DNA from: Amphiscolops sp. MND2022
Lineage: Eukaryota
DNA: 64,000 nt
NCBI GenBank assembly: GCA_964187785.1
Contig: OZ076418.1
Span: 28,644,001 to 28,708,000, forward strand
Reading direction: 5' to 3'
A program made the position numbers and the translations under genes. Within the stretch, counting starts at the first letter, position 1, and each line of letters opens with the position of its first letter. The notes under the pieces are model-generated. The model did not search any database. It saw only the letters and a list, made by a program, of their open reading frames with translations, and was not told where the DNA came from. Shown here in pieces: positions 15,988 through 42,987 of this stretch.

Positions 15988-16023
15988 ATTGGTGACCAGA
16001 CCAGGATTCATTTCAAGGTTAGC

Positions 16024-16602: not shown

Positions 16603-16772
16603 AGGTGAGCTTTTAGAGTCTCGAACTCAGAGCCGCTGTTGTTACCTCTTTATAGCTTTTCGAATTAAAGGTGAGCTTTTAGAGTCTTGGACTCAAACCC
16701 CCCTAGTAATTCTTAGCCATTAAGACTCAAATTGTTCGAATTGTGTTTTTTTTCAAGTCATTACCAAAATCA

Positions 16773-19772: not shown

Positions 19773-20695
19773 GTGCCTGCTCTGAATGTGCGAAATTCCG
19801 ACCACGAACTGAGAAACCGATCGATACTTGGCCAGATGCACAACCATGGGAGAGACTACACATGGATTGGGCTTATATTCAAGAAGTAGGCAACACTCTT
19901 ATCATTGTCGACGCTGGTTCTGGTTGGATAGAAGCGTTCATATGCGGCGATCGGCCCACGGAAAAAGTCATACATTGTCTGTCCGCCATTTTTGGGAGAT
20001 TTGGGGTCCCACACACTTTAGTTTCCGACAATGCAAAAGAATTTATCAACGACAAAGTTGTCACGTGGTTACAGGCTCAAGGCTGCACCAAATTAGAGAG
20101 CCCAATCTACAATCCAAGGAGTAATGGACTTGCCGAACGGGCTGTGCAGACTGTAAAGAAAGCAATGAGGGCATGGAACTCGTCTCTTCGTGTCAATTTC
20201 CATGCATTTCTGCAGCGAGTCCTGTTCACACACCGTAACACTTCTTCCGTGAGAGGGAAGACTCCCTCAGAAGTTCTGCTTGGAAGGAAAATGCGACTTC
20301 CTGCTGTCATCAATTATCCCATCGGATAGCGCGTAGTTTTTCGTGCTGGACCTCACACTGAATCTTTTCCTGCAAGGTATGTCGTTCGGAAGGGCAATAA
20401 TACAGCATGGCTCACTAAGGAAGATTCAGACGGGTCCGAGAGAACAATTCTAGCAAGTACTAGTCAAATTGCTCCCTTTGCCAGTCCAACTACCGCTGCC
20501 CCTGATCTAGTGACGGCTAAATCAACTACAGATGGTACTACGACCACGGGCGTGGCGGAACAAACTTCGACATGCGTTTCTAGTAGAGGCCCGTCTTTGG
20601 TTGTAGAGTCTTCTACTACTCCCGAGGTCCCGCTCAGGAGGTCTGCACGAGTCACGAAATCGAACCCAAGATTCAACGACTTCATTTGCAAGTAG
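19770..20695 (+). pseudogene. pol: Integrase core and C-terminus, out of frame with upstream pol and with an in-frame TAG at 20327-20329
   Basis: CSEC...WERLHMDWA...IVDAGSGWIE...SDNAKEF...RSNGLAERAVQTVK, ending LRRSARVTKSNPRFNDFICK*. Confidence 0.92.
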
Positions 20696-20717
20696 CTATG
20701 AACTCTTGGAAGTGGGA

Positions 20718-20875
20718 TGATGTATATACTGATTTATGCCTTTATTATATATTGCTGTAATTGATTTATGTTTTACTTTAGATGTCGATGTCCCTTTGAT
20801 ATGTGCTTTGATAACTGCCGTCTACAGAAAACTAACCTTTAAAGAAAAGCGTTTTGATCAACGAGAAACACGACA
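20718..20875 (+). repeat. 3' LTR of the Mag-like Gypsy element
   Basis: Direct repeat of 15830-15987, preceded by the PPT. Confidence 0.95.
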
Positions 20876-21019: not shown

Positions 21020-22470
21020 TAAAGGACGCTTTGAATATCGATCCACTTGAAATATCTGCGATCGGTAATAAGTATATAAACTCTTTGAAATTGAACTGTT
21101 GAACTTGTTGAACTTGTTGTATGAAAAAATCGTTTCAATAAGCAAAACTTTAGCCGCTTCAATTCCTACTGTCCTTTCACCACTGAAGGATTAGCTGATA
21201 ATGAGAAGCCTTACTTTTTCTATCTAACTGATTCCCTGGAAACATCTAAAGTTCTATGGAACCTCAAGATCCATAAAGCGACCGGATTAGATGGGCTAAC
21301 TGATGAAATTTTAAAAGTGATTAATGATAAACTGACTTACCTTGTCAACGAAATATTATCAAGTGGTGTTTTCTCGAAGACTAAGAAAGCTGCGAAAATG
21401 GTTCTGATCTTTTTAACCGGGCAAAAGAGCAACTGTGAGAATGTTTGACACATATAAATTTTACCGGTTCCGAGCAAAGTCTTTGAGCGGGTAGTTTTCG
21501 AGAGAATGTATAGATTCACGCAAGAAAACAGTTTTTTCTATGGTCGTCAAATTGGATTCACATCAAAAATGAGTAAACTACATGCACTAACGGTCAAAAC
21601 GGAACTGATTTGGGATAATACACATCTTGATGTATCCTGAATGCTATTAGATCTTAGAAAAAGTTTGGTACAATGTATCATGAAACCTTATTCAAATTGG
21701 AGTGCTATGGTGTTAGAAGTAATTATTTAGAATGGCTCAGGTTTGATCCCAATGACTTTACCCAATGCGTTGCTTTTAATCATCAGTCTCAAATACCATA
21801 ACTGTTGAGTGTGGTGTACCAGAAACATTGATTCTAGAATCGCTATTGTTTCCATAATACGTCATTGATTTTCCAAGCTCTTGTGATGATAATGTATTAT
21901 TCTTGCACGCTGAGGATATTAACTGTGTCTTTATTCGACAGAAAAATGCTACGTAAACACTTCAAGATAACGTTGAGCATTTACCGTCGTGGATGGCAAA
22001 AAACTGAGCCTTCATAATGGAAAGACTGAGCTTGTGGACGTCTTGATATGTCGGGATTGAAAGTGTGAGAATGACAAGTACTACCATATCTCCAACCAAA
22101 TCTCTGAATTATCTGGGTTTTCACCTGGAGAAAAATCTTACCTTCGAAGTCCTTGTTCAAAGTGTACTTGGTAAAACGGCTAAACATGTATCAGTGGTAA
22201 TGCGGTTGAGACATATTGGTAAAATTTCAATAGTGGTCAGATATTATAACATTTACTTGAAGCCTATCATCCAATACGGTCTTTTGCTATAAGGTTGCAC
22301 GAGAAAAAGTGAATTGAATGACACACTTTTGCTGCAAAAGAAAGTACTTCGGGTTATCTTTTTCAAAAATCGAAGAGATCCTTAAGATGAACTGTTCGAA
22401 CGAAGCCGTGTATTGAATGTTTATGATCTCTATGTTCGAATTGGTTGTCTTCAAGCAAAAGGGCAACTAC
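21020..22470 (+). pseudogene. Decayed non-LTR retrotransposon (CR1/L2-like LINE) reverse transcriptase
   Basis: KATGLDGL..EILK, ILPVPSKVFERVVFER, LDL.K, decayed GVPQGS.LGPLLF (GVPETLILESLLF), LNYLGFHLEKNLTF, YNIYLKPIIQYG; many stops and frameshifts. Confidence 0.88.
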
Positions 22471-22582
22471 TGAATTGAATTTGTACTTCCCCAAACATTC
22501 GACGTGGATAAAGTTTCTTTCGATGAGTGTTGTTAGTTCTTCTATTGTGTTTACGGAACTCGCCTTGAGTTCATTCTGCTGA

Positions 22583-23093
22583 TGTGATAATCGGCTTCCG
22601 GCCTATTTCCGTCAATCGTGATTGTTTCGTCTAACGCATCATTTGCAAGTGCCAGAGGAGTTGATCGTTGTCTTAGTTCATGTCTGAAAACTGGAAATGA
22701 TCATTTTATCTTTGTCAGTTTGAATATTCGTGTTTTCTCCTAAGAAGTTTGTTTTCTGAGTGAGCAGGACCAGGCCTGTTGTTCTCGGCATCCTCTTCAC
22801 CAGTTGTTAAGTGATTGTTTCTACTTGCTCTGATTTTTTTGAGTATTTCTTCAAATTTGCTGTTTAGTTGCTCTTCAATCGGTGCCATGTTTGGGTTGTT
22901 TCGCTCAGGTTAATCCCTGAGAAATAACTTCTATCTCGTTGCTAGTTTGTGAAGATTCTGTTAGTTCACCACCTAAGTTCCTGTCAAAATTGTTGTTAAC
23001 ATTCTCAGAAACATCAACTGAGAGTCCCATTTTCGTCTTTGTCTGAACACTGAGATCTTACTCTCTTGAGCGTCCGTTTCTTTTGTTTCCCAT
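22583..23093 (-). pseudogene. LTR-encoded Gag leader (MGNKRNGRS...EADYH), element L copy 1
   Basis: ATG at 23093; peptide blocks ELTESSQTSNEIEVISQ, EEQLNSKFEEILKKI and TITIDGNRPEADYH are similar to the element R leader. Confidence 0.65.
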
Positions 23094-24129
23094 GGTGAAA
23101 ACAGTGTTAGGCGCGAAAATCTTCATATTTCAAAGAACTAGGGTGAAATGAACTTATACATTTTTCACAAAAAGGAAAAATGTAAAAAATAAACACTGCG
23201 AGGTTGTTTGGCAAATTAGGAGTGACTGTCTTGTACGAGTGCTTTTTGTTCTTTTGTTGAATGATTGTGGGGGAAACTGATTTTAAAAGTCTCATCTCAA
23301 AGGATTTCAGTGAGCATTTATGTACCATGACCATCAAGTTTTCTCAAATCATCATAACGTCAGGGTTTTGGGGTTAGATGTTAAAAATAAATCATAACAT
23401 CACATTCCCAGAAAATCTAAACATAAGCGCCGTAGAAGCGGTGGATTACCGCGGAATAATTTGCAAATTACTCAGTCCGTTGTTATAGATCCGCATATAC
23501 TGCTTCGTGAAAACCGAATAATTTAGCTTAACACACTAGCTATGTCGCCCTGGTGTCCAATATGCTGTTTTCCAAACTAAAAATGATGCTGTCTCAATGA
23601 AATTTCTACATCTGCTAATTTACTCATGATACTGCATTTACCGTATTATCAACAAAACCGCATTTGCTGTTTTGACAATAATACCGCATTTGCTGTTATA
23701 GCCGCATATGCTGCTTCATACAAACTGCATAATACAGTACAAATTGCAAGCACAGGTACGTACAGTTTCAAGATGCTGCTTTCCAAGGAAATCATCATTT
23801 TCAAACATTTTCCGCTAATGATTTTGTACTTGTCCTATTACTGTAAGAAACTCTGTAAATGCATAGAAAACGGTCTCACTTCGTGAAATTGCTTGATAAA
23901 ACAAGACTTTGGATCAAGTCAAAAAAAATTGTCACCATTTGACTAATTTATTTATTCAACGCGCTCTTTTTCTTCATTTTGAGAACAACATCAGCAAAAT
24001 TATCATCAAAGTAGAAACAAAGAAAACATCAACAATTACAGACCGACAGTATCAAAAATTTTATCCAAATGAAGACAACGTAAATATCGACCTACAGAAC
24101 AATCAATTGAAACAAACATACAAGTTCAT

Positions 24130-25171
24130 AAAGAAGTTTGATTGTTTCTGATGTTTGGATGTGGTAGGTAGTTTTTGTTTGTCTTTGGACTTTCTTAGAT
24201 CAGGTGCAGGATGTTGATCTGGTAAGCTATGCTGCCCGCCGGACATGTCGCAAGGATACCATGGCGACAGTTCAGCATTTCTGATACAGTTCAATGCCGA
24301 ACCAAATCAGTCCACAAGTGCTCTTGATTGCACGATTCTGTCCCTGGTGCTTTTTTCGAGATATTCCGACCATGGAATGTAGTGTGTGAGGGTCATTGCA
24401 GAGATCAGATCATATGTTTTGGAACAACCAGGACAGTACCCTGCAACTTTCGGCCTTACCGGGGGTGCATTTGTAGTACAGACCTTTCAGTGCCCCTCAT
24501 GCTGAATCTGGGTTTGTACGCTGAAGCTTTGTTGTTCATATTGTACGTTGTTCCAATTTTTGGGATAATTTGGAATAGGCCTTAGCAAGTAATGTGCTTG
24601 CATGACTGGAAGTCCGGTCATCTCTGGGACTCTTTGCGGATCAGGGATTACCACTCAGAAAGCACTCCTAATACTAGGTATAATAGGGGGATTCACAGCT
24701 GTCCTTGTTACTGGGGTGTTTTGATGACAGGGGCACCTTTTGGACGGGACGTCCGTAACTGTTTCCATCAGCTTGTTCCACGTTCTCGAAGTTTGCACCA
24801 AAAAATGGATCGTCTTCTTCATCTGATGATTCAATGAAGGTCAGAGTTGAGATGTTAGCAATGTTGTCCATGAGTTTCATTCAGTCTATTTGGATGATTG
24901 AACCTCTAGTATCAATGTGCTGCTCTCTCTCGTCAGTCCCTGCCTCACCGTTGTTTGAGAATGAAATTGCTTCTGTTGCCTCCATGGAAGCGGTTAGGGC
25001 AAACGGGACTACTCTGAATCTATTTTCCAGTTGTGCCATTGTGAAGGGTTCCACTGCAAACTCCTCTCCCGAGCTGCTGGAGAATGTAATTAAATCCATG
25101 GCGGGGCTTGTCGTCAAAGGTTCTTTCCCATTGACCGATTCGGTGTTCAGAGGTGTATTTTCCGTCTTCAC
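24130..25171 (-). pseudogene. Accessory ORF-A (sense to gag-pol), element L copy 1
   Basis: Peptides QLENRFRVVP, NSYGRPVQKVP, LRPIPI, KVAGYCPGCSK, RAIKS and RNAELS..PCD match ORF-A of element R. Confidence 0.7.
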
Positions 25172-25905
25172 TGTTGTATTTTATTGAGGTTTGAGAAGAA
25201 TAGTGAGAAAACCACAACATAACTTTGGCAATTAAACTTACAAATGAATTGCAATCAAGAAACAAACAACTGTTCTACAGAATTGTTTGGTCAGAGTGAT
25301 GATAATTTTTTTTATTTTTTATAGAACTATGGAGTTTTCTTATAAATTACTTCAAAAAATAATTTGAAACACCCGTGTTCCCGGTTACTCGGGCAAATCA
25401 TCGTAGGATCTAAGGGAGGAAACGCCGCTAAAATTTTTAATTCCATATAAACAAACATCAGAACTATGACTTTTCTTTTAAAGATCTTTCATAATTCGAT
25501 TTTTGACTTTCCGTAATTCACCAGACTAAGTTCTTTCCTCATAATCAAATACTTTGCAGGTCATTCAGGTTTATATGGTAATAGTTTTCACACTTTATTG
25601 CTCATTTCTCTTAAAGTGTGAATATTCATTCGTATAATAATCATTGTGTAGTAACTTATACGGAAGTAACAATTGAGGTGTACATCGTATACTCCTCACT
25701 GAAAACATCACTACACGTCAAATTCTCACTAATTAGCAACATTAAAGCATATTGCTATTTCCATTAATTTCCTAAAAATATAATTATGTAGATTTATAGA
25801 GTTTCCGCATATTGCGCAGGTTGAATAGTATTGCATTATCTTGTGCAAATTTTACAAAGACAAAGCCTGTCCATATAAGGAATACGCCTTTATAGCCTAG
25901 TCATA

Positions 25906-25990
25906 CTGGCAGATCTTTCCAAACCCTTGCACATCCTTCAACCAATCAGAATACAGATAGGTCGCAAACGCCGCAAAACTGACGTCAGCT
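25906..25990. promoter_or_regulatory. Promoter-like segment (CCAATCAGA, TGACGTCA) between divergent ORF-A and ORF-B, element L (duplicate at 31598-31680)
   Basis: CTGGCAGA near 25906, CCAATCAGA at 25942, CRE palindrome at 25980-25987; the same motif set occurs at the equivalent position in element R. Confidence 0.5.
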
Positions 25991-26824
25991 TTTTGCTTTA
26001 TTGCCTTTCTGTTAATCGGCACACCTTCATCATTGCTTAATAATATACAACCAGATTTTGTCTCAAGTCCATAAAGTTTCCATTGAAATCGTCGTCTTTT
26101 CTTTCGCTTCTTTGCCGTATTTTTCAATACACATTCATAGCATTTTTCATTCTTCGCAGTTAGCATCGTTCTTCTAGTTCCTTTCGATCATTTTAATTCT
26201 GCTTCCTCTGCAGTTTCTGTTAGCTAGCTGACTATTTTCTCACCTTCGAACGGTGTGGTTTTACCCTGCTCTCCTGTATTATGCACTTCAACTTCGTGTT
26301 CTACCACTCGGAAGGGAAAAGATGTCAGAACAAAACGAGGAGATTGAGCCTTCCACACAAAGTTTGTAATGATGTTTCCGGCCATTTGAAATTGGTATAA
26401 AACGTTTCGATCTTTGACTTCGTATCCTTTTTCATAGGTTCTTTTTTGAAATTCCCGTTCCGACCGATGAACAATCTCTGATTTCACAGCAGCTTTTCAC
26501 AGCCCCATTTTTGGATTCCCTGCTCCAACTTGTGAACAGAATTTCTGGAGTACTCTAGGTTTCAAAGTGTGAATCGATCAGGTTCGCACAAATTTTGATC
26601 CGTTAACTTCCGTTTCAAACTGATTTCCGTTTTCTCTATTCCTTTGTGTTTCAGTTCCTCTCGATCTCCATATTTCGACGCAAACACAATCTTCCTCCTC
26701 CTTTAGAGCAATAACACTGCCTATTTTTTCGACAATCCCCGTGATCACTCTACTCCACCGTGATCCATGAAGGTCATGGTACACACGTTGACACATACGG
26801 GATCAAAAATTCCATAAAAAAAGT

Positions 26825-27342
26825 ATGAGTCTCGATCAAATCGCATCTTCTCCTATCGGATTTGCAAGTTTTCTGGCTCCAACAACCAATATTGCGGCCT
26901 CTCATGAGGTACCAGCAGGAGGAATATCAACAGAATACGATTCCAACAATCGAGAAAAAATTAAAACACCGTCGTTCACGTGGATTTAGATGTATCCAGC
27001 AACACTGACCGCTTCATCGACATTCTTCATGAGACTCCTTCTGATGGACTTACTGCTCAACCAATACAATGTGGATCTTCCGACTTGGTTCTGGAAAAAT
27101 TCCAAACTTCTTTTGCGTCACCGCCAACACAAACTCTAACTAATTCTGATTATGTTACAAATTCATACCTCATGGAACTGGAGCATAGATTGAACGTATT
27201 CATAATTGGGGCCACTACCACCATTGGTTCTCGCTTGTTAGAACAGCCACCTGCTAGTCCAATAAATAGCACTAGACCTAGGACTGCTTTCAACCGTGCC
27301 CAGTTGAGACGACCCGAGGCCACCAGTCTTAACCTCTACCAC
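26825..27342 (+). pseudogene. 5' part of accessory ORF-B, truncated at the duplication junction
   Basis: Copy of 32518-33034. Confidence 0.6.
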
Positions 27343-27355
27343 TTAACCTCTACCT

Positions 27356-28170
27356 TTTGGTACAATGTATCATGAAACCTTATTCAAATTGGAGTGCTAT
27401 GGTGTTAGAGGTAATTATTTAGAATGGTTCAGGTTTGATCCCAATGACTTTACCCAATGCGTTGCTTTTAATCATCAGTCTCAAATACCATAACTGTTGA
27501 GTGTGGTGTACCAGAAGCATTGATTCTAGAATCGCTATTGTTTCCATAATACGTCATTGATTTTCCATTTCCAAGCTCTTGTGATGATAATGTATTATTC
27601 TTGCACGCTGAGGATATTAACTGTGTCTTTATTCGACAGAAAAATGCTACGTCAACACTTCAAGATAACGTTGAGCATTTACCGTCGTGAATGGCAAAAA
27701 AACTGAGCCTTCATATTGGAAAGACTGAGCTTGTGGACGTCTTGATCTGTCGGATTGAAAGTGTGAGAATGACAAGTACTACCATATCTCCAACCAAATC
27801 TCTGAATTATCTGGGTGTTCACCTGGAGAAAAATCTGACCTTCGAAGCCCTTGTTCAAAGTGTACTTAGTAAAACGACTTAACATGTATCAGTGGTAATG
27901 CGGTTGAGACATTTTGGTAAAATTTCAATAGTGGTCAGATATTATAACATTTACTTGAAGCCTATCATCCAAAACGGTCTTTTGGTATAAGGTTGCACGA
28001 GGAAAAGTGAATTGAATGACACACTTTTGCTGCAAAAGAAAGTACTTCGGATTATCTTTTTCAAAAATCGAAGAGATCCTCAAGATGAGCTGTTCGAACG
28101 AAGCCGTGTATTGAATGTTTATTATTTCTATGTTCGAATTGGTTGTCTTCAAGCAAAAGGGCAACTACTG
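27356..28170 (+). pseudogene. Duplicated 3' part of the LINE reverse transcriptase
   Basis: Copy of 21664-22470. Confidence 0.85.
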
Positions 28171-28280
28171 AATTGAATTTGTACTTCCCCAAACATTCGA
28201 CGTGGATAAAGGTTCTTTCGATGAGTGTTGTTAGTTCTTCTATTGTGTTTACGGAACTCGCCTTGAGTTCATTCTGCTGA

Positions 28281-28795
28281 TGTGATAATCGGCTTCCGGC
28301 CTATTTCCGTCAATCGTGATTTTTTCGTCTAACGCATCATTCGCAAGTGCCAGAGGAGTTGATCGTTGTCTTAGTTCGTTCATGTCTGAAAACTGGAAAT
28401 GATCATTTTATCTTTGTCAGTTTGAATATTCGTGTTTTCTCCTAAGAAGTTTGTTTTCTGAGTGAGCAGGACCAGGCCTGTTGTTCTCGGCATCCTCTTC
28501 ACCAGTTGTTAAGTTATTGTTTCTACTTGCTCTGATTTCTTTGAGTGTTTCTTCAAATTTGCTGTTTAGTTGTTCTTCAATCGGTGCCATGTTTGGGTTG
28601 TTTCGCTCAGGTTAATCCCTGAGAAATAACTTCTATCTCGTTGCTAGTTTGTGAAGATTCTGTTAGTTCACTACCTAAGTTCCTGTCAAAATTGTTGTTA
28701 ACATTCTCAGAAACATCAACTGAGAGTCCCATTTTCGTCTTTGTCTGAACACTGAGATCTTACTCTCTGGAGCCTCCGTTTCTTTTGTTTCCCAT
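28281..28795 (-). pseudogene. LTR-encoded Gag leader, element L copy 2
   Basis: Duplicate of 22583-23093. Confidence 0.65.
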
Positions 28796-29829
28796 GGTGA
28801 AAACAGTGTTAGGCGCGAAAATCTTCATTTTTTAAAGAAATAGGGTGAATTGAAATTATACATTTTTCACAAAAAGGAAAAATGTAAAAAATATACACTG
28901 CGAGGTTGTTTGGCAAATTAGGAGTGACTGTCTTGTACGAGTGCTTTTTGTTCTTTTGTTGAATGATTGTGGGGGAAACTGATTTTAAAAGTCTCATCTC
29001 AAAGGATTTCATTGAGCATTTATGTACCATGACCATCAAGTTTTCTCAAATCATCATAACGTCAGGGTTTTGGGGTCAGATGTTAAAAATAAATCATAAC
29101 ATCACATTCTCAGAAGTTCTGAACATAAGCGCTGTAGAAGCGGTGGATTACCGCGGAATAATTGCAAATTACGCAGTCCTTTGTTATAGATCCGCATATA
29201 CTGCTTCGTGAAAATCGAATAATTTAGCTTAACACACTAGCTATGTCGCCCTGGTGTCCAATATGCTGTTTTCCAAACTAAAAATGATGCTGTTTCAATG
29301 AAATTTCTACATCTGCTAATTTACTCATGATACTGCATTTACCGTATTATCAACAATACCGCATTTGTTGTTTTGACATTAATACCGCATTTGCTGTTAT
29401 AGCCGCATATGCTGCTTCATACAAACTGCAGCAGTACAAATTGCAAGCACAGGTACGTACAGTTTCAAGATGCTGCATTCCAAGGGAATCATCATTTTCA
29501 AACATTTTCCGCTAATGATGTTGTACTTGTCCTATTACTGTAAGAAACTCTGTAAATGCATAAAAAACGGTCTCACTTCGTAAATTTGCTTGATAAAACA
29601 AGACTTTGGATCAAGTCAAGAAAAAAATTGTCACCATTTGACTAATTTATTTATTCAACGCGCTCTTTTTCTTCGTCTTAAGATCAACATCAGCAAAATT
29701 ATCATCAAAGTAGAAACAAAGAAAACATCAACAGTTACAGACCGACAGTATCAAAATCTTTATCCAAATGAAGACAACGTAAATATCGACCTACAGAACA
29801 ATCAATTGAAACAAACATACAAGTTCATA

Positions 29830-30865
29830 AAGAAGTTTGATTGTTTCTGATGTTTAGATGTGGTAAGTAGTTTTTGTTTGTCTTTGGACTTTCTTAGATC
29901 AGGTGCAGGATGTTGATCTGGTAAGCTATGCTGCACGCCGACATGTCGCAAGGATACCATGGCGACAGTTCAGCATTTCTGATACAGTTCAATGCCGAAC
30001 CAAATCAGTCCACGAGTGCTCTTGATTGCACGATTCTGCCCCTGGTGCTTTTTTCGAGATATTCCGACCATGGAATGAAGTGTGTGAGGGTCATTGCAGA
30101 GATCAGATCATATGTTTTGGAACAACCAGGACAGTACCCTGCAACTTTCGGCCTTACCGGGGGTGCATTTGTAGTACAGACCTTTCAGTGCCCCTCATGC
30201 TGAATCTGGGTTTGTACGCTGAAGCTTTGTTGTTCATATTGTACGTTGTTCCAATTTTTGGGATAAATTGGAATAGGCCTTAGCAAGTAATGTGCTTGCA
30301 TGACTGGAGGTCCGGTCATCTCTGGGACTCTTTGCGGATCAGGGATTACCACTGAGAAAGCACTCCTATTAGGTATAATAGGGGGATTCACAGCTGTCCT
30401 TGTTACTGGGGCGTTTTGATGACAGGGGCACCTTTTGGACGGGACGTCCGTAACTGTTTCCATCAGCTTGTTCCACGTTCTCCAAGTTTGCACCAAAAAT
30501 GGATCGTCTTCTTCATCTGATGATTCAATGAAGGTCAGAGTTGAGATGTTAGCAATGTTGTCCATGAGTTTCATTCAGTCTATTTGGATGATTGAACCTC
30601 TAGTATCAATGTGCTGCTCTCTGTCGTCAGTCCCTGCCTCACCGTTGTTTGAGAATGAAATTGCTTCTGTTGCCTCCATGGAAGCGGTTAGGGCAAACGG
30701 GACTACTCTGAATCTATTTTCCAGTTGTGCCATTGTGAAGGGTTCCACTGCAAACTCCTCTCCCGAGCTGCTGGAGAAATTAATTAAATCCATGGCGGGG
30801 CTTGTCGTCAAAGGTTCTTTCCCATTGACCGATTCGGTGTTCAGAGGTGTATTTCCCGTCTTCAC
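29830..30865 (-). pseudogene. Accessory ORF-A, element L copy 2
   Basis: Duplicate of copy 1; shares the TGA after IIQID. Confidence 0.7.
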
Positions 30866-32517
30866 TGTTGTATTTTATTGAGTTTTGAGAAGAATAGTGA
30901 GAAAACCACAACAGAACTTTGGCAATTAAACTTACAAATGAATTGCAATTAAGAAACGAACAACTGTTCTACAGAATTTTTTGGTCAGAGTGATGAGAAT
31001 TTTTTTATTTTTATAGAACTATGGAGTTTTTTTATAAATTACTTCAAAAAATAATTTGAAACACCCGTGTTCCCGGTTACTCGGGCAAATCATCGTAGGA
31101 TCTAAGGGAGGAAACGCCGCTAAAAATTTTAATTCCATATAAACAAACATCAGAACTATGACTTTTCTTCTAAAGATCTTTCATAATTCGATTTTTGACT
31201 TTCCGTAATTCACCAGACTAAGTTCTTTCTTCATAATCAAATACCTTGCAGGTCATTCAGGTTTATATGGTAAGAGTTTTCACACTTTAATACTCATTTC
31301 TCTTAAAGTGTGAATATTCATTCGTATAGTAATCATTGTGTAGTAACGTATACGGAAGTAACAATTGAGGTGTACATCGTATACTCCTCACTGAAAACAT
31401 CACTACACGTCAAATTCTCACTAATTAGCAACATTAAAGCATAATGTTATTTCCATTAATTTCCTAAAAATATAATTATGTAGTTTTATAGAGTTTCCGC
31501 ATATTGCGCAGGTTGAATAGTATTGCATTATCTTGTGCAAATTTTACAAAGACAAAGCCTGTCCATATATGGAATACGCCTGTATAGCCTAGTCATACTG
31601 GCAGATCTTTCCAAACCCTTGCACATCCTTCAACCAATCAGAATACAGATAGGTCGCAAACGCCGCAAAACTGACGTCAGCTTTTTGCTTTATTGCCTTT
31701 CTGTTAATCGGCACACCTTCATCGTTCCTTAATTATATACAACCAGATTTTGTCTCAAGTCCATAAAGTTTCTATTGTAATCGTCGTCTTTTCTTTCGCT
31801 TCTTTGCCGTATTTTTCAATACACATTCATAGCATTTTTTATTCTTCGCAGTTAGCATCGTTCTTCTAGTTCCTTTCGATCATTTTAATTCTGCTTCCTC
31901 TGCAGTTTCTGTTAGCTAGCTGACTATTTTCTCACCTTCGATCGGTGTGGTTTTACCCTGCTTTCATGTATCTTGCACTTCAACTTCGTGTTCTACCACT
32001 CGGAAGGGAAAAGATGTCAGAACAAAACGAGGAGATTGAGCCGTCCACACAAAGTTTGTAATGATGTTTAAGGCCATTTGAAATTGGTATAAAACGTTTC
32101 GATATTTGACTTCGTATCCTTTTTCATAGGTTCTTTTTTGAAATTCCCGTTCCAACCGATGAACAATCTCTGATTTCACAGCAGCTTTTCACAGCCCCAT
32201 TTTTGGATTCCCTGCTCCAACTTGTGAACAGAATTTCTGGAGTACTCTAGGTTTCAAAGTGTGAATCGATCAGGTTTGCACAAATTTTGATCCGTTAACT
32301 TCCGTTTCAAACTGATTTCCGTTTTCTCTATTCCTTTGTGTTTCAGTTCCTCTCGATCTCCATATTTCGACGCAAACACAAGCTTCCTCCTCCTTTGGAG
32401 CAATAACACTGCTTATTTTTTCGACAATCCCCGTGATCACTCTACTCCACCGTGATCCATGAAGGTCATGGTACACACGTTGACACATACGGGATCAAAC
32501 ATTCAATAAAAAAAAGT

Positions 32518-34170
32518 ATGAGTATTGATCAAATCGCATCTTCTCCTATCGGATTTGCAATATTTCTGGCTCCAACAACCACTATTGCGGCCTCTCATGA
32601 GGTACCAGCAGGAGGAACATCAACAGAATACGATTCCAACAATCGAGAAAAAATTAAAACACCGTCGTTCACATGGATTTAGATGTATCCAGCAACACTG
32701 ACCGCTTCATCGACATTCTTCATGAGACTCCTTCTGATGGACTGACTGCTCAACCAATACAATGTGGATCTTCCGACTTGGTTCTGGAAAAATTCCAAAC
32801 TTCTCTGCGTCACCACCAACACAAACTCTAACTAATTCTGATTATGTTACAAATTCGTACCTCATGGAACTGGAGCATAGATTGAACGTATTCGTAATTG
32901 GGGCCACTACCACCATTGGTTCTCGCTTGTTAGAACAGCCACCTGCTAGTCCAATAAATAGCACTAGACCTGGGACTGCTTTTAACCGTGCCCAGTTGAG
33001 ACGACCCGAGGCCACCAGTCTTAACCTCTACCACGAGTGCTCAAAGGGAAATGTAAGCGACGATTAGGGAAGCTTTCCAGCAGACCCAGAACGAGTGTAA
33101 CAAGGCCAGTTTAATCGGGTGGGCAAAACTCTATACAAAAGCGGCCTAGGCTTTGGTTGCAATTGTCCGAACAAAGGTTCCGCAAACACCCTGTCAGAAT
33201 CCCCATAAACGGCGATGCAGGGTTTGTCACATTGAATTGTCCTTAGAAACAAAAAGCTCTCTGGAGATTTTATCTCACTGCAGGACAGACCCCCACCTAG
33301 TCCGAGAAAACCGATTCTGTATAGAAACGCCTGTATTACCCTCGTTTGGGCGTGATGACGTGGAACTCGTCCGGATTGCTTTGGACGAAGCGCGGGAGAG
33401 AGCAGAGTTGGAATTCGCTCAGCCTCCCAATTCGGGTCAGTGTTATTTGTTACATAGAGTGCTAGCTCTGGATACTGACGTATTGGATATTGACGTACTG
33501 ACGTTGTCGTATGTTCCCAAATGTGTAGTTTGCTAAATGGACTTCAACATGGTGGAAACTTGAATCTCTTGCACACTCACTGAACGAATTTGGGTCGTGA
33601 AACTAGAGGAGCAACCAGGATGCCTCAATAAGATTGGAATTCGGAACGCATTTTTGTAAGTGTCATTTCATTAAACGTTTCATTCAACCTCCTTATTTTG
33701 TACATAACTATGGCGTTTCGCAGGGTATTCTCGTCTACATGTTCGCGAATTGATGACTTATTCAACTTCTTCAATCAGTCAGTCCGGCCATTGTTCGTTA
33801 TAGCTCAGCACTAACGACAATGTTTCACGAGTAATCGTTGCATTTGGTCCAGCAATGTTCAATATTACCTGTGTCTTGCAGATTTTCCTTACACACTGTT
33901 TATTGCCAAGAAAGCCCTCGAGGCCATCAGTTTCTTCCTCAGTGTTCGACATAAAATACTCCCTGTCTATTCTCTGTTGGGGTTTGACGGCCGATGGCTT
34001 GCAAGGCTCTCGTTGTCGAAATAAATCAGGTTCCTTCGACTTGCATTGTGGCGACGTTTGGTTAGGATGATCTGGATAAAATTCTGGCTGCATCATCACA
34101 GTCTCTACATTTTCCCCTGATAAACCTTCGTACAGCACTTCAATCAACGTGAATCACCAAACTTCCTGAA
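32518..34170 (+). pseudogene. Accessory ORF-B (antisense, spliced; CxxC...H-x5-H zinc finger), element L
   Basis: NPHKRRCRVCHIELSLETKSSLEILSHCRTDPHLVRENR...TP, SQMCSLLNGLQHGGN, DWNSERIF|GTAAGT (donor 33656). Right boundary approximate. Confidence 0.7.
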
Positions 34171-34624
34171 TTACGAAAGGTATGTGTTTGATAGTTTTAC
34201 ATCACTGTTTTCATCTTCATTTTTATAATCATATAGTACTCGCAGTTTTCTGTAGACTGTGCACAGTGTGTATTTTGCTTTTAGGCAGTGATCGGAAAAC
34301 CGCATTGTACAGCATAATTTGTCGAATTCAGCGATATTTTCCGACTTCGCGTCATACTGCCACCCCTCATAATTTCTATTTTTTGCTGTTTTTTTCTGAC
34401 TTTCGTCATGGTGTTTCATGCTGGAAACATCATAAAAACATTCCACGATGCTGTTTCGTTCTGAAATTGCATAAGTGTTTTCATTATGTTGTTTTCTGTT
34501 TAAAACCGCATAACACCATTCTGCCTTTCTCTATTTTAATCATATGTTTCATTTTGGCCCAAAAACCTTGACGAGACAGTGGACAAGGACAAGACTTACG
34601 CTGCTAACATAGTCTTGATCAAAA

Positions 34625-35410
34625 ATGTCTTTCTACAAGGTTAGTTTCTTTCCGTATTCCTTTTCTATGCTTTGTGTCCATGTCCTTTGTTCTCAGTTTT
34701 ATTTTGTTCTGATCGATCCGCTTTCAAGGGAGTAACTGGAGTTTCAACCGAAGGCGTCCGCATCTACAGCGCCTTTGCCACCTTCGCTTACACTCAAATA
34801 CAATCCATCTTTGCCAGACTTTTTTCTTGGGACAGATTTTTATCAATTCGTCACTCTGCTGCATTAGTTCGCCCAACTTATTCACTATCCCACCTGATTT
34901 CGCTGCAACTTTGCCCTCTGAGTTCAATTCGTGTGTCCGGAGCGTGTAATCCTCCTTGGTTGTAGTTCCGAATGTCTCTGGGCTATTTACTAACCCTCGT
35001 ACTGTTACCCCTATTTTCGCCGTATTGGAGAAAGGAAGGACTCTCTTTGATGACGGTTCATTCTTTGTTTGGACGTTACTTCTCCTTGTCCCTTCCAACG
35101 CCGAACTCTCTTGGATAGTATGGATTCACGCTATTCATGTACGGTGACTGATGAAGAAAAACAATGGGCTACCATTCAAACTAGTCCTAAACCCTCTGAA
35201 TCGATTTCAGTCCGGTCGTCTTCGGAATTTGTTTCTGCGTCACCGATCTAATTTGGTCATAGCTCTTCAGGAAAAGCTATTACAAAATCCCCTGTTCTCG
35301 AGACTCCCGTCGTTGCAGTACCCCGTGTTATCTCAGAAACGCCTTTTTTATCTTTTGATAAACCTGATTCCTCCTAGAATCTTACTCTGAAAAAGAAGGC
35401 CTCTGGACAG
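34625..35410 (+). pseudogene. Accessory ORF-C (antisense, adjacent to pol end), element L
   Basis: ATG 34625, 57-nt GT-AG intron 34640-34696, motif FNSCVRSV*SSLVVVPNVSGLFTNPRTVTPIFAVL shared with element R. Confidence 0.6.
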
Positions 35411-35671
35411 AAATGTTTCATCCATTTGCAAAGTAACAATATGCTTTGAATTTGTTATGTCTTGTTTGTATTTACCTGTTCATATCGTATGTACTTCTAG
35501 TGTCACAATTTATACACCCATCAGGCTGAGTACGTCTGATTTGGTATTTTCTATTAAATGATCAGGAAGAGATCTGCCAACTTTTGTTCAAGGAATTAAA
35601 AACGAAAAGAAAGGAGCAACTGAGACCGTCATATTATTAGTTAGGGCCTTTGAGTTTTTTCATCTGTCTTT

Positions 35672-36477
35672 TCAATATCTGAATGAGGCTGAGTAGTTAT
35701 GGTTAGGGTTCGGGCATAGATTGGACTTTTCACTTTTCGCAACAATAGTTTCCTTTACTTCTTGTGCATCTTTTTCTCGATTGTTTCTGGTAATTTTTGG
35801 TGTAATTTTGGATTCAAATATTTTGGAAATGTTCTGGATTTCTTGGCGTTTCCAATGTGGACTCATGATTTTTATTTTCTGATGTTTCTCTGACTGTTTG
35901 GAATTCTTTTTCATCATTAACGAGTTGTGTTGCTGGGGTTCCCCCACTGTTTTTGAAATTATCGTGGGCGGGTGGGTGGTATATTTCGGTTTGAGAAGTA
36001 AGTTCATATTCGACTGTGCCCTCTTGTTGGTAACCGTTATCCTGTTCGGCATCAAATGGGTTAGGTTCAAAATTCGTTGTCCCAAGTGTGGGCATCCAGG
36101 TCATTGTGAGAGATAAGTGTAAATTTTTGGCCATTCCGTTTCTCTGAGAAAAAGGAATTATCTGCGAGAAGAGCTTGCGGTATGTATTTGCGTAATCTGA
36201 TGAAAAGAAGAAGCTGCATTTTGTTTGTTCTAAGTCTACGAACAATATAGTTATTGTTCGGTAAGTTCTTTTCAATTTTATACGGTCCAACCCATCGAAA
36301 TTCACGAAAGGGTACCTTTGTTGCTTGTGTGTCTGCTTTCAAGTTCACAATAAAGCAATAGTCCTCTGTTGTTGAAGGTGCCGCATATGTTTTTCTATAA
36401 ATATTAGCCTTTATATTTAAGACAAGAATGCATTATATTTTTCTTTGGTATGAAGTAATGCAATTAGCCTCTGGAAT
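35672..36477 (-). pseudogene. pol: Integrase C-terminus and tail of element L
   Basis: KADTQATKVPFREFRWVGPYKIEKNLPNNNYIVRR (GPY motif), ending NLCPNPNHNYSASFRY*. Confidence 0.9.
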
Positions 36478-37030
36478 TCCTCTGTAAACTCTTTGGATTT
36501 TAACGATAAATCACGACATGATCACAACTTCACAACCCAATCAAGAACTACAACTCGAATTCTTTCTGAGTTTGAAAACTAGCTCTAAACCCGCGACTTT
36601 GTTGTTCTATGTTAAACCCGAGACAGAAAAGGACAGCTGTCTCAAAACCACTGAAACTCGATTCGGTCGTCTGGATTTTACAGGAATTTACTCCTCGAGG
36701 TCTATGGCCGTTGGGCCGTAGTATTTCTCCTGTCTCTCACGGCAAAGAAGTTGAATTTCCAGGCGAAGGTCAGACAATACAAAGTCCGAACACCGAGAAG
36801 AGAGCAAGTAATTCCAGCTATCCGATTGTCTGTTCTGGAAACTAAAGAATGAAAGATGCTAAATATCATCTATTCACAGTGAGACCAAAAAGAATCCAAT
36901 CGTATCTAGATATGAACTCAAAGTTTCTTGAACTGATTATTTAGGTATCAAACGGTTATCTTCTAGGCAGCTTTTGTTTTCATCCCCTTTTTTCTAAAAA
37001 AAACTTTTGCGGTTGCAAAATGAGGCCGGA

Positions 37031-37372
37031 TGTAAACTATTTGGATTTCAACGATGACTCATGACATAAACAACTCTAAAACCCAATCAAAAACTACTAC
37101 TTGAACTCATTCTGAATTTGAAAACTACCTATAAACTGACGAAGTTTTGTTCGATGATTTACCACCTGGAGAAAACTTGATGAGTTTGAACCTCAATTAA
37201 TAAAGATTCCATTGAATAGAAATGATAGACCCTGATTGATTGGAACGGTCTATCTTTTTTAACGTGTCTTTTGCAAATGAATATACAGGCCTACGAATCG
37301 ATCTGGGACGCTCTAAACGAGCCAACAGCAAGTGAACGATTATATGAAGCAAAGACACCCGAAGATTTCAGA
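37031..37372 (+). repeat. Middle BEL LTR (mosaic)
   Basis: Matches 42638-42982; preceded by the PPT and followed by the PBS. Confidence 0.92.
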
Positions 37373-37699
37373 TGGCGCCCACTAAAAAATCGACCCTGCT
37401 TTTACCTGGGATCAGCCGAGCACACTATCAACAACGGCTAACTCATTTTGCAATGGTGTAAATTTTTGGGAAACGTTTTGCTTCGTTGGTGGTTAAGATT
37501 AAGTTATCAAAGCAGTTTTTTAAAGTTTTAAATTAAGGTTATCCACCCAGTGGTTACTCCCAGATTTTCATTGTTATAATGCCTCTTGATAATCCGGCAC
37601 CTTCAACCTTCCAATAGCCAACAAATTGTTACCGACAGTTTCAAATTGGATTAATCCTAGGACTAATCAGAAGTTTTTTTCCTTCAATTGGCCATTTGC

Positions 37700-40600
37700 T
37701 CTTCCATTTTGAGCATCAATTTCCAGCTATCCTTCTTTTGCAGTGATTTTCTGCAATCTCCTAATTTGGGATCTACCATGCCTTCCAAATGTTACCAGCA
37801 AAAAACTTCGCTCCACAGCGTATTTTCCTTTTCGCCAAAGCTATTCGTCTCTTCAGCAGAATATACAGAGCCATTGATGAAGAAAAAAACCGATTTTGAT
37901 ATCAGCTCTTTCAACGGCGAACTAAAGAAAACCCTCACAGATGTCGACAAATCGACCTTCTTTCTACTCGACCATCTACCCGAGATTACCACCGATGAAC
38001 AATTCATTGCCGAATACACCAAACTCCAAAGTTCTTCAGAATGCAGAAATCTGCAGCTGCCAACCGGCCGATCCGAACCATGGGAGTCTACAACGTGAAC
38101 GACAGTTAACAAATTGTCAATGGAACAAGCGGCGATTCTTCAGATGAACAGAACGTACATTGCAGTATTTCTCATTAAGTTGTTTCCGACAACGAAACAA
38201 ATAATCAACAGCAATTTCCCGATGTATCACAACCAAACACGAGTCTCCATCAACCAACGTCTTCAAGAGCACAAACATCGTCACATGACTCCCTCTCTCA
38301 TTTACTCGACCCAAATTGGAAATTGAACCGTACGATGGAGATTCCACGAATTGGAATTTGTGGTATGGTCTTTTTACAACTCCCATACACAACCAACCCA
38401 CTTCTTTAGCTGAGAAAATGACACATCCCCAGACACTTACGACCAGAATAGCAAATCAGGCTATTTCAGACATTTCCTGCAGCAGCCAAGTGTACGACGC
38501 AGCACTTGCAGAGCTACATTACGCTGTTTCGGAAGACGTGAAAAAATAGTGAAAAAGTTTCTTCACGTCCTCCAGAATTTTCGTCAGCAAGTGATACAGT
38601 AACGTAACACTTTGACGGAGTTTTCAACTTTAATCAATAATCTCGTGGAAACTTTCCCGTAGCTGGGTTTCACCAATGACCCGAATTCGACACTCTACGT
38701 TAACAAACTGCCTCTACTCAAAGATTAAAGTGGACACAGTACGCTGTGAGTAACAATTTACAAAAACCAACATTTGGATCTGAGAATTCGCACTGTGGTA
38801 ACCTTATTTTCAAATTTGACGATCGCGCGACTTCAGCTCAATTTCAAAGAACCAGCTATCAAGAGTTACACCAGTCAAACAACTTCGACCTCTCTGCCCA
38901 TTCGACAAATTGGATCACCACCAAGCGCATCGCTCCACCTACAAGAAAGCAATCCTTGAACAGAGACCGCGAATGGTTTTATACAAAATAGTTTGTCGCG
39001 ATTGTTTAGGACAACACTTGAAGACTGATTGTAAATCACAACACTTCTGCCGCTCGTGCAGCCGCAAGCACCTTTCATCTTCATACGACGATAACTGGAA
39101 TAACCCTCGACAAACCCCTGAACAAACGAACGACAACCCAAATTTCAGACCGACACCAAAAACATTCTGTAGTAAGACGAAACCCAATCAAAGTCCTCAA
39201 TTTCCACAAAGCTCCTCATCCGACAAAACGCTGCCAGCCGCAAAAACTAGCACCGATGCACTGTTGGTGGCAGTACTTGTAACATTGGAAAAAGACAATA
39301 CTTTCGTTTCCTCCTACGATTCCTTTGACACCGGGAGTACATGTAGCTATCTACTCTCCATTTTGCGAACAGATTGAATTGCATTCTCAAAGCCGTGAAA
39401 CTTGAGATTGGAAGTTTTCACGAATCGAAAACCCTGGAAACAAAAAGAGTGTCTCTTACAGTTCGGTAACATCGCGGAATCCTTCAACCTCAGTCAAGTT
39501 TTTGTCTTACCATCCTTCAACCTCGCTGATGTCGATACCCATTCTCTCAACGCCATCTGTCAACAAAACCCACATCTCAGCGGAATTAGGTTTCCTCAGC
39601 TACTGCATAACCAGATTGGACTTATCTTGGTACAAGAAATCTTTGATTTTTCAACAGCTCGCGACAGTTTTCAAGAAAGGTTCAAACGCACCGGGCGCTG
39701 TTCTAACCGACATAGGTTGGACTATTGGCTGTCCCCATGATAGTCGCTACCAACAATCCACCTTTCACGCCACAATGTTCCAATGTCTTACATTTGCCGA
39801 CAAGCACCACGACGATGACGATTTGTAAAAACTTGTCTCGTCGTTTTGGAGAATGGAAAGCTCCAAAAAGTCCTCGGAGTGGATTGGAAACTGTCCACAG
39901 ACGAAATGGAAATTTCGCCTACCAAGCTAATCAGCCAATTCTAAGCCGAACCTACACAACGATCCTTTCTCCGAGCAACATCGTCCGTGTTTGACCCCTT
40001 TGGTATTGCCGCATCCGTTACAATCCGCTTTCGCATAATCCAACAAGCTATCTACAGTAAAGGTTTAAAATGGGAAGACGAAATAACCCCCTCCGTTTTG
40101 CCTGAAATTTTCGACACAATAGCCTAATTGCAAGAACTGTCTGCCGTCGCCATACAGAGATGATTGTTTCCTGACAAATATGACGCTGTCGCGCTCCATG
40201 TCCTCACCGACGCGTCCTATTCCGCACTCGCCGCTGTCACATATTTCATTTATCGACAATCGCCAACACCGACGCGGAAGTTTGTTTTGTACTGAGCAAT
40301 GCCCGAGTTGCGCTTTTGCAGCAACACACCATCACCAAACTCGAACTACAAACAGCCCTTTTGGGTTCGCGTCTCGTTAAGTTCATTCAACGCCAACAGC
40401 GTCAACGCGATCCACCTTTGGACAGACAGCACAACTGTCTTACAATGGATCAATGGATCTCATCAACGTCAACAAGTTTTTGTTGCCAATAGGGTAGCAA
40501 AAATATCCGAGAACACGCAAGCACATCATTGGAATCATTGGAATGAAAGCCCGCTGATGGTACACGTGGAATCCCTTTTTGCGATTTTCACAACGGCACT

Positions 40601-42459
40601 CGTTGGTTTCAACGACCTGAGTTCCTGAAAAAACCATCGTCAGAAGGGCCACTCAACTCTGCAAACCCGCAAGCATGTGTAAAAGTGAGCGCGTCCTTCT
40701 CATCAGACGTCCGAACAGCACAAGTCAATTCCTCTTCGGGAATTGGATTCGCACAAGAAGCCACAGACATAGTCACAGATGACGCCTCAGACGTCGCAGC
40801 AGATGTTGCCGCATCCGTAGCCACAGAAGAAGAAGAAGAAGAAGAAACAGCAGCAGAAGTAGGTACAGAAGAACAAGAAGGAGGAGAAGAAGCAATAGCA
40901 ACAGAAGTAGCCACAGAAGAACAAGAAGAAACAGCAGCAGCAGCAGCAGCAGAAGTAGCCACAGAACAAGAAGAAGAAGAAGAAGAAGAAGAAGAAGATG
41001 AAACAGCACCCGAAGTAGCTAACAGTGATGAAAGAAACCCTGTGCAACAAAGGTCACAGTAGTCGCCACCGTGTCACCGTTGCCCAAAAATACTGCACAT
41101 ATTATTGTTACTCTGGACTGTGTCACTAACATGGTGAATGAGATTAATTGTGGTCAATTGCCTCTATCAATCATACGTCATTATCGGGACATCTCGAACA
41201 CACATCGAGTAGATTGTTTTTTTCTCATGGGAACAATTAGTTCGAGTCACAGCTATCGTCCTCCGCGCAATTCAAAACTTTAAGAAACTTCGCCCTCCTC
41301 AATCACCTCGGACTGATAGTCGTTTACGAAAATCGCCCTTCGATAACTGTCTAAAACATGCTATGATACTGGATGGACAGCACCACATAGTTTGGTGATT
41401 TTCGAATTTCGAACGCCGGATCCATAATAAAGAAAATCATTCGCCACTGTTATGATTGCCGACGTCGAAACTCGTACGCTACATACCCTGAAGTGTCCAA
41501 TATCTCTCCGTTCCGTTTCCGTGCCGACCAACCCTTTCCGTTCCAGCAGACGGGACTAGATGTCTTTGGACCCTTCCCGTCAAAAACAACTTCGCAAACT
41601 TACAGCAAACGCTACTGATTTTAACCTGCCTAACCACTCGAGCAGTATACACAGAAATGTGCCATAATTCTTCCCTCTCTGCAACCATGACCGCTCTATG
41701 CCGTTTTTTTTTGCACGTCGTGGTCCACCACACTTGGTAATTTTCGACAACGGTAACAGTTTTACCGCTTCAGACAAAGAATTGCCTAGTTTTTTCTATC
41801 AACCATCTCTGCAAGATTTCTTCGGTCTACGAGAAGTTCGATGGATCTTTAAACCAACGAAAGCGTCTCATTTCGGAGGGGTCTGGGAACGACTCATACA
41901 TTTTTGCATAGACGCTTTTACGCCAATTTGGGCAGCAAGGCTCTATTAGATTGATTATACGTTTCACACCCTGCTATTTGGAATGGAACATTTCATGAAA
42001 AAGCGACTTTTGACAGCTGTCTTCTCCGACTCTGGAGACATTGAGCCACTAACCCACAATAATTTTTTTTAATGGGGAGACCCTACAGCAAAGTTCCACT
42101 CAGCTCAACCTTTCAGTCGCCTTCATCAATCACTAAACAGTGGAAGTATGTAAACTGGAAGATTACAGTTCCAGTAACCTATGGAACCGTCTTCAAAAAA
42201 GTCCTGTCCGTCCTTAAACGCGAGACAGAAAACGACAGCTGTCTCAAAACCACTGAAACTCGATTCGGTCGTCTGGATTTTACAGGAATTTACTCCTCGA
42301 GGTCTATGGCCGTTGGGCCGTAGTATTTCTCCTGTCTCTCACGGCAAAGAAGTTGAATTTCCAAGAGAAGGTCAGTACAGACAATACAAAGTCCGAACAC
42401 CGAGAGGAGAGCAAGTAAATCCAGCTATCCGATTGTCTGTTGTGGAAACTAAAGAATGA
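37700..42459 (+). pseudogene. gag-pol: Decayed BEL gag-pol lacking RT
   Basis: EIEPYDGDSTNW (gag), CRDCLGQHLKTDCKSQHFCRSCSRKH, FDTGSTCS (PR), then directly VFDPFG, HVLTDAS, HLWTDSTTVLQWI (RH) with no YVDD region; integrase DNGNSF, HFGGVWERLI, WPLGR. Confidence 0.88.
40745..41040 (+). repeat. Glu/Ala/Thr-coding low-complexity repeat with (GAA)n runs
   Basis: Repeated GAAGTAGCCACAGAA (EVATE) units, GAA runs and a GCA run. Confidence 0.9.
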
Positions 42460-42637
42460 AAGATGTTAAAGATCATCTATTCACAGTGAGACCAAAAAGA
42501 ACCCTATCGTATCTAGATATGAACTTAAAGTATCTTGAACTGAATATTTAGGTATCAAACGTTTATCTTCTAGGCAGTTTTCGCTTTCAGCCCCTATTTT
42601 CTAGAAAAAACTTTTGCGGTTGCAAAATGAGGCCGGA

Positions 42638-42982: not shown

Positions 42983-42987
42983 TCCTC

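Follow-up and report, generated by a model that had tools for sequence, protein, structure and literature searches.

We examined a 64,000-nt stretch of the Amphiscolops sp. MND2022 assembly (contig OZ076418.1, positions 28,644,001 to 28,708,000; hereafter the window), which consists of nested eukaryotic repeat DNA of about 39% GC and contains two dead long terminal repeat (LTR) retrotransposons, L and H, both on the minus strand. An earlier note on this sequence regarded L as a second, divergent element with the same ordered accessory region as H, and this view is borne out by collinear blocks of similarity detectable only at the protein level, and by their codon pattern. H, our comparator, occupies positions 48210-64000 (minus) and extends beyond the window edge. 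It possesses an LTR pair (48210-49309+ and 62832-64000+, 81% identical, with the match continuing for 1,100 nt or more until the window ends), an open reading frame (ORF) termed ORF-A (49758-50784), an antisense gene (~52750-56716) and gag-pol (57163-62831), whereas L retains one end only.

L is a decayed, dead element. Its 3' terminus (28282-28291, ending in ..CA on the minus strand) has TGTGATAATC in common with the end of the H 5' LTR (62832), and recurs at 22584-22593. Although a terminal TG is indeed present at 22584 and 28282, we rule out 22583/28281 as an LTR pair, as these are duplicate copies of one L end, generated by a 5.68-kb tandem duplication (21664-27342 and 27356-33034, plus strand; 97.0% identity, with 140 mismatches and 28 gap nt) that spans ~920 nt of flank as well. 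The first copy comprises flank, the L 3' end, ORF-A, a spacer and the start of a second frame, ORF-B, within which it breaks off, and the second runs on into the rest of L. A pol stop lies at 35672, where the earlier note placed the end of pol, but L continues beyond it: the 3' end of pol, encoding the C-terminal part of integrase (35672-36445, minus; Integrase_p58_C, E 0.004, and tblastn with proteins P0016 and P0040), is separated by an inserted BEL/Pao element (36612-42983, plus; LTRs 36612-37373 and 42214-42983, 93.8% identical) from the remainder of pol at 42984-~44881 (minus), where L is 5'-truncated. Only the end of reverse transcriptase (RT), RNase H and integrase are retained in L pol, and no 5' LTR of L lies within the window.

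L and H are Ty3/gypsy LTR retrotransposons. In the natural relative P0040, which maps along both elements, pol follows the Ty3/gypsy order of protease-RT-RNase H-integrase, and the best match of pol in the Protein Data Bank (PDB) is Ty3 Gag-Pol (E 6e-47), ahead of foamy-virus enzymes. The L/H pol clade is large, including 302 of 408 candidates at E<=1e-10. The earlier note had described L as an independent instance of the accessory module; the two are separate insertions of divergent families, but given that both fall in one clade (83 of 150 RNase H residues identical), their accessory region reflects shared descent rather than independent origin. Residues ~230-330 of P0040 (window ~60635-61100, minus) are a conserved stretch separating protease from RT, for which neither Pfam nor the PDB gave a match; by position it could be a dUTPase-like insert, as noted in other gypsy elements (PMC6431247).

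Conservation of the accessory region

A six-frame search of the 7.4-kb L stretch from pol to the 3' end (28281-35672) against H (48210-57169) returned six high-scoring segment pairs (HSPs) at E<=0.05. Five are collinear, same-orientation blocks of 52.0, 40.8, 51.6, 38.9 and 39.7 bits (E 1.3e-9 to 1.3e-5; 26-39% identity), and the sixth is a shadow of ORF-A on the opposite strand (E 0.019); when 10 codon-shuffled subjects were searched instead, the best scores were between 22.3 and 26.6 bits. In ungapped tblastx just 5 of the 6588 HSPs score 30 bits or more, and these share one orientation; blastn gives a best E of only 0.056, so that the comparison yields collinear protein matches with little nucleotide identity, as the earlier note had anticipated. 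In each of the seven accessory blocks conservation is lowest at codon position 3, and the called frame far outscores the other five. Identities at codon positions 1/2/3 are 46/46/30 of 79 for the C-terminus of ORF-A, 23/35/14 of 46 for the zinc finger of ORF-B, and 21/29/13 of 49 and 36/32/20 of 62 for the two blocks of a third frame, ORF-C. Codon pattern and frame scores together assign ORF-A to the gag-pol (minus) strand and show that ORF-B and ORF-C run antisense, on the plus strand.

These comparisons indicate that a sense ORF-A, an antisense gene that diverges from it and has a C2H2 finger and two or more conserved introns, a gag start in the LTR, and non-coding clusters of CCGCAT-type motifs very probably constitute a conserved cassette, which is located between pol and the 3' LTR in one Ty3/gypsy clade.

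A gag leader is present, as the earlier note had recognised; from our comparison, gag very probably starts inside the LTR. The broken 5' part of gag in L (28282-28795, minus; duplicate 22584-23093) starts with MGNKR (at 23093/28795) and ends with DYH at the terminus; in both elements an MGN.. start lies ~510-600 nt inside the element end, which the frame reaches as DYH. The H 5' LTR ends in TGTGATAATC (..CA) and is followed by a TGG-starting site resembling a primer-binding site (PBS), and here the DYH frame crosses the PBS site into an internal region that holds two CCHC knuckles. L/H similarity over this part amounts to only ~20 bits, and consequently the case for gag in the LTR rests on the start, the end and the H junction. 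A scan for polypurine tracts gave 6 candidates in L and 3 in H, none of them matching between the two, and the LTR start is therefore not fixed.

ORF-A (~29927-30859, minus; duplicate ~24229-25165), also named in the earlier note, is broken by stops and frameshifts, and is 50% identical to the intact relative P0144. A profile of the ORF-A pieces from the window matched 56 proteins among 4127 candidates (two being the window's own), and the 22 that were aligned include intact ORFs of 315-348 residues, of both L-like and H-like subtypes. Full-length members of the two subtypes are 53-58% identical in the C-terminal domain and 26-33% in the N-terminal part. The layout is a low-complexity N-terminal region of ~230 residues (10-11% Pro, 7-8% Gln, 11-13% acidic, 5-6% basic; mostly disordered) followed by a conserved CxxC..C domain of ~75 residues, with CxxC, two helices and a last Cys. 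We found no Pfam match, no match in a PDB sequence search and no usable ESM Atlas match for ORF-A; its structural model is poor (predicted local distance difference test score, pLDDT, 40.4), and a wide fold search gave generic helical pairs (best Z 5.5) that are uninformative. AATAAA occurs downstream of ORF-A on the minus strand in both L (29655) and H (49731), at differing distances from the stop, and may end a separate ORF-A transcript.

The antisense gene and the motif clusters

The earlier note treated ORF-B and ORF-C as separate frames; the finger (33195-33332) and ORF-C (34697-35027) are both present on the plus strand, but we amend this description, in that both are antisense and most likely exons of one spliced gene. 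ORF-B corresponds to a broken exon 1 with an approximate start (32400-33655, plus), identified from its codon pattern, from 117 matches at E<=1e-3 and from P0187, which covers 32992-33685. It is followed by a 68-nt phase-0 intron (33656-33723, GTAAGT..CAG; H equivalent 54016-54164) with canonical signals in both elements, and by a broken exon 2 (33724-34179; H equivalent 54165-54650) that starts GILVYMF in L and GIIIHMF in H. L/H similarity stops at GTAAGT (33656; 54016) and restarts in frame past CAG (33723; 54164). At the end of exon 2, 12 of 23 residues are identical, after which the same TACGAAAG precedes GTAT in both (34180; 54651).

Relatives of ORF-B extend the evidence for intron 1 beyond the window. 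A profile search of 1.84 billion proteins returned the 117 matches mentioned above, of which 114 remain after removal of L's own P0182 and the unrelated P0253 and P0261 (71 of the 117 being in the folded alignment); a word-index search among longer proteins had returned none of 454 candidates. Among relatives that reach the donor column, W stands at -7 in 43 of 51, V at 0 in 43 of 53 and S at +1 in 33 of 50, such that they read W-x-x-x-R-I-F and then V-S, which is GTRAGT read through, before diverging. The tails past the donor are unrelated and short (median 14 residues among the 24 of 114 that fit a strict pattern), with 8% charged residues versus 19%, and this holds even in distant members such as P0248, P0263, P0271 and P0288, while a few relatives (P0199, P0230) read through into sequence matching exon 2 of H and L. 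As conservation of the 114 relatives ends at a translated GTAAGT donor, intron 1 is very probably family-wide.

Further downstream, a moderately supported candidate short exon (34556-34639, plus; H equivalent ~54921-55003) shows a nucleotide alignment with H that is reached by 1 of 200 shuffles, and a peptide score tied 4th of 127,840 window positions, L's own included. A candidate 57-nt GT..AG intron (34640-34696, plus) joins it to ORF-C with the same phase at both ends. ORF-C itself, probably a late exon, has 17 of 49 and 24 of 62 residues identical to H 55877-56023 and 56480-56665, and is ~450 nt shorter in L than in H. Given that the 57-nt gap has matching phase and leaves no room for a separate promoter, ORF-B and ORF-C probably belong to a single spliced antisense gene. 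Against this, the signals in H at the places matching 34640-34696 are not canonical, and L 34270-34540 finds no counterpart in H.

Exon 1 codes for an extended low-complexity region, a basic patch seen in 59 of 114 relatives, a CxxC-x14-18-H-x4-5-H finger seen in 75 of 114, and a helical region; the structural model of its product is confident (pLDDT 86.7). The best Pfam match is zf-BED, found in 3 of 71 members (best E 1.6e-4). Structural similarities are weak throughout: fingers in TUT4, TUT1 and U2 small nuclear ribonucleoprotein (snRNP) structures align at Z 3.7-4.7 (in the comparison with BED fingers Z 3.7-4.0, root-mean-square deviation 1.6-3.0 A over 44-58 residues), BED structures at Foldseek E 0.9-1.4 and Z 2.3-2.6. 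We take the former to be of the U1/matrin type. A wide fold search with exon 1 reached a best Z of 4.7, a PDB sequence search gave one chance match, the ESM Atlas held no usable match to ORF-B, and a homodimer prediction for exon 1 (score 0.00) was uninformative. The pieces of exon 2 and ORF-C, which are available in decayed form only, have no Pfam or PDB match, hAT domains included. A likeness to the hAT C-terminus noticed by eye in one H ORF-C frame was rejected, as it has no Pfam or PDB support and does not lie in the frame best conserved between L and H. A third, more distant remnant of the ORF-B finger is present at 46770-47165 (minus), closest to P0270, P0289 and P0263 (E about 1e-13), with TGACGTCA at 45916 on its downstream side.

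The CCGCAT array proposed in the earlier note was also recovered, with sites at 29192, 29359, 29385 and 29403. This cluster (29192-29408, plus; duplicate 23491-23707) lies partly in a 26-nt tandem repeat, with a tandem repeat in copy 1 as well, and is positioned 400-610 nt upstream of the gag start; its four sites compare with a shuffle mean of 0.18 (0 of 300 shuffles), and the matching H cluster is at least partly inside the LTR. Over the accessory region, CCGCAT occurs 8 times on the plus strand and never on the minus strand in L, and 12 times versus once in H (shuffle means 1.5 and 2.4; 0 of 300 each), while three control regions show no enrichment (reached by 91, 138 and 221 of 300 shuffles). 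CCGCAT is the top 6-mer in L spacers and the 4th in H spacers, where relatives of CGTATA and TGACGT dominate, the H regions for this ranking having been picked with the cluster positions already known. One set of clusters is upstream of gag; others occupy the spacer separating the divergent genes and the stretch preceding ORF-C. A third cluster between the antisense exons of H (55240-55730), in the longer gap that corresponds to 34640-34696 of L, includes a 63-nt tandem repeat in three copies with CCGCAT and TGACGT, and is absent from L there.

The spacer between ORF-A and ORF-B (31497-31679) is a candidate two-way promoter, with CCGCAT at 31497, CCAATCA at 31634 and TGACGTCA at 31672. The combination of CCAAT with a cAMP response element (CRE) named in the earlier note is thus present in L, but its order is reversed relative to H and the CRE is only a half-site in H, making it the weakest of the common features; as a pairing, CCAATCA and TGACGT are suggestive only. 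Rfam and tRNA scans gave nothing, and a bacterial promoter scan, which is not applicable here, was at chance level.

Further features were noted in other parts of the window. At 2-4271 lies BEL/Pao sequence with pol, in which long frames for gag and pol are open (757 and 692 residues), and at 15830-20874 a short-LTR gypsy element with 157-nt LTRs (97% identical) and a 1020-residue ORF; both look recent. The BEL/Pao element within L pol is flanked by a short TCCTCTG word in common with no clean target-site duplication, ~130 nt just beyond its left LTR (36483-36611) resemble part of that LTR (77-80%), and its pol region contains a Glu/Ala-rich low-complexity ORF of GAA/GCA repeats (40547-41062). 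The presence of BEL/Pao elements speaks for an animal host. The flank at 21125-22583 appears by eye to resemble a long interspersed nuclear element, but has no Pfam match. At 8062-8500, direct (80%) and inverted repeats of ~155 nt are unexplained, and imperfect inverted and short direct repeats at 14753-15698, outside L and H, include CCGCAT at 14892, 14903 and 15343.

A possible self-regulatory circuit and its rivals

Introns in antisense are not spliced from the genomic RNA of a retroelement. Those of L and H face against the genomic RNA, and hence are not spliced out and survive reverse transcription; an antisense gene likewise needs a promoter of its own. The extra genes and motif clusters suggest that these elements may encode their own regulators. 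In the mechanism we propose, the spacer between ORF-A and the antisense gene would act as a two-way internal promoter, and the antisense protein, with its basic patch, finger and helical region, would enter the nucleus, bind the CCGCAT/CGTAT clusters of the LTR and internal promoter, and so switch the element on or shield it from silencing. ORF-A, with its acidic, Pro- and Gln-rich region and small Cys domain, would serve as a co-activator or second regulator. We put forward this self-regulatory cassette, in which a zinc-finger protein binds the element's own motif clusters with the help of ORF-A, as a tentative reading of the sequences. A broader proposal, which we consider doubtful, is that a large animal Ty3/gypsy clade operates a circuit like that of complex retroviruses without env, in which a spliced antisense finger, possibly a tamed DNA-transposon gene, reads the element's own CCGCAT clusters in partnership with a second novel protein and thereby activates the element or protects it against silencing. 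If true, this would amount to a sequence-specific system like VANC or Tax in an LTR retrotransposon.

A number of observations weigh against the proposed self-regulatory cassette. The exon 1 finger aligns better to RNA-associated fingers of the spliceosome and TUTases than to BED fingers, all weakly; 68 of 71 exon-1 members have no zf-BED match, and exon 1 has no Foldseek match at E<=1e-3 in the PDB or a viral library. CCAATCA and TGACGT occur together in both spacers, yet in opposite order, and the motifs resemble sites of host factors (CRE and CCAAT, and presumably GCM and Runx), such that binding by host proteins could be enough to account for them. The CpG observed/expected ratio lies at 0.79-1.01 across flanks, pol and the BEL element; with CpG undepleted, nothing points to heavy DNA methylation that the element would have to counter, and any anti-methylation reading is weakened. 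L 34270-34540 matches H no better than chance (190 of 200 shuffles score as high), leaving the middle exons not fixed. Moreover, the remnant at ~46770-47165 has no ORF-A or pol beside it and no cassette around it, and the relatives were obtained without genomic context.

The main rival, although in our view unlikely, retains the same anatomy but has the antisense protein bind RNA, either to export or package it in the manner of Rev/Rex or to suppress small-RNA silencing, and leaves the motifs to be read by host factors. The best structural neighbours of residues 1-66 are the TUT4, TUT1 and U2 snRNP fingers, and an antisense-transcribed element makes double-stranded RNA (PMC7264820). However, the Z scores concerned are low (only 3.7-4.7), the best Pfam match is zf-BED, and the motif clusters are kept in both families.

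It is also unlikely that ORF-A is the transactivator, acting in the manner of Tax or Tas via host bZIP proteins or NF-Y at CRE/CCAAT and CGTAT sites, while the antisense gene serves a different purpose, for instance repression or integration targeting. Tax acts on CRE repeats, TGACGT sites are enriched in H spacers, and the Pro/Gln/acid-rich, mostly disordered N-terminal 230 residues of ORF-A, with no membrane segment, fit such a role; however, searches with ORF-A gave no family, structure or motif evidence, and the TGACGT enrichment is weak in L.

It seems improbable that the antisense gene does nothing for the retroelement, being instead a piece of a hAT-like transposase that was captured a single time and persists as a passenger, or that can still move on its own. 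Its introns, the BED-like finger near the N-terminus, a total length like that of a transposase and the lone distant remnant at ~46770-47165 are all compatible with such a history, and transposases can become regulators (bioRxiv 10.64898/2026.08.24.746577). Yet L and H carry the gene at corresponding sites and in one orientation, and its third codon positions are near saturation while positions 1-2 are conserved, which calls for selection during element replication; nor did we find a hAT or other transposase domain in any exon, the later ones being searched as decayed pieces, or terminal inverted repeats around the gene. A hAT origin could hold even where the passenger reading fails. Finally, an env-like gene, suggested by position between pol and the 3' LTR and by the sense orientation of ORF-A, is highly improbable: ORF-A is not env-like, as maximum 19-residue hydropathy in its relatives is 1.03-1.13 with no membrane segment, ORF-C is antisense, and there is no Pfam or viral fold match.

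Relation to known systems

The closest precedent for the cassette is found in the plant Retand/Grande elements. In Retand/Tat-type Ty3/gypsy elements (Retand, Grande, RIRE2) antisense ORFs occupy a region of 2.9-6.6 kb between pol and the 3' LTR (PMC7264820, PMC11963269), Grande gene23 is nuclear with its own promoter (PMC7264820), and the antisense ORFs of Retand are accompanied by tandem arrays (PMC11963269). A long region between pol and the 3' LTR with an antisense ORF and tandem arrays is present in L and H too, the plant ORF having predicted DNA binding and a promoter of its own. However, L and H have a C2H2 finger in place of TRP28 (PF04195), which was found in none of the 71 exon-1 members or the later exons, and for this reason we do not place them in the Retand lineage despite the layout. 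They differ further in their conserved introns (the word intron is absent from the main text of PMC11963269, while PMC7264820 calls for a search for spliced antisense transcripts), in an extra sense ORF of no known family, in the gag start in the LTR, and in a host that is probably an animal.

Likeness to VANC and to Tax/HBZ of human T-cell leukaemia virus (HTLV) is by analogy only. The VANDAL elements of Arabidopsis encode an intron-containing accessory gene whose anti-silencing product, VANC, binds short motifs in tandem repeats of non-coding regions, introns included (PMC5735166), and the accessory gene, tandem motifs and introns of L and H are comparable. VANDALs are DNA transposons, though, and in L and H motif binding is proposed only, CpG depletion is not seen in the window, and Pfam searches with the accessory proteins found no match to the VANC domains DUF1985 and DUF287. 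Complex retroviruses (HTLV-1 Tax/HBZ, foamy-virus Tas) similarly carry regulatory genes between pol and the 3' LTR, one of them antisense and spliced, together with CRE-like LTR sites; HBZ is spliced, and Tas has an internal promoter. An antisense promoter is also documented for complex retroviruses (PMC7264820). L and H, in contrast, have no env, their pol is closest to Ty3, and their proteins show no homology to Tax, HBZ or Tas.

Among invertebrate Ty3/gypsy elements, extra genes are carried by planarian Burro (PMC6431247), bdelloid Vesta/Juno (ORF3; PMC5408684) and Oikopleura Tor, whose env has an internal promoter (PMC4402516), but as these sources describe them the extra ORFs are env-like, enzymatic or of host-domain type, and none is presented as an antisense intron-bearing zinc-finger gene. 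The multi-exon antisense transcripts reported for Copia are non-coding (bioRxiv 10.1101/2024.04.02.587720). In the literature searched (Repbase, Dfam and subscription journals lying outside that scope) we found no report of an animal gypsy element whose antisense strand carries a coding, intron-bearing zinc-finger gene, and the repeat libraries of genome papers could already hold the family.

What the antisense extra ORFs of LTR retrotransposons do has yet to be settled in plants (PMC7264820). The cassette described here supplies a named motif as candidate target, together with two protein families that lack Pfam or PDB identity and have many intact copies in nature, making function directly testable, and probably in an animal. 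Furthermore, the conserved intron means that a spliced gene, held backwards, can be maintained and selected in a retroelement, in a form that ORF-based annotation misses. The finding also bears on the origin of regulatory genes of the retroviral type.

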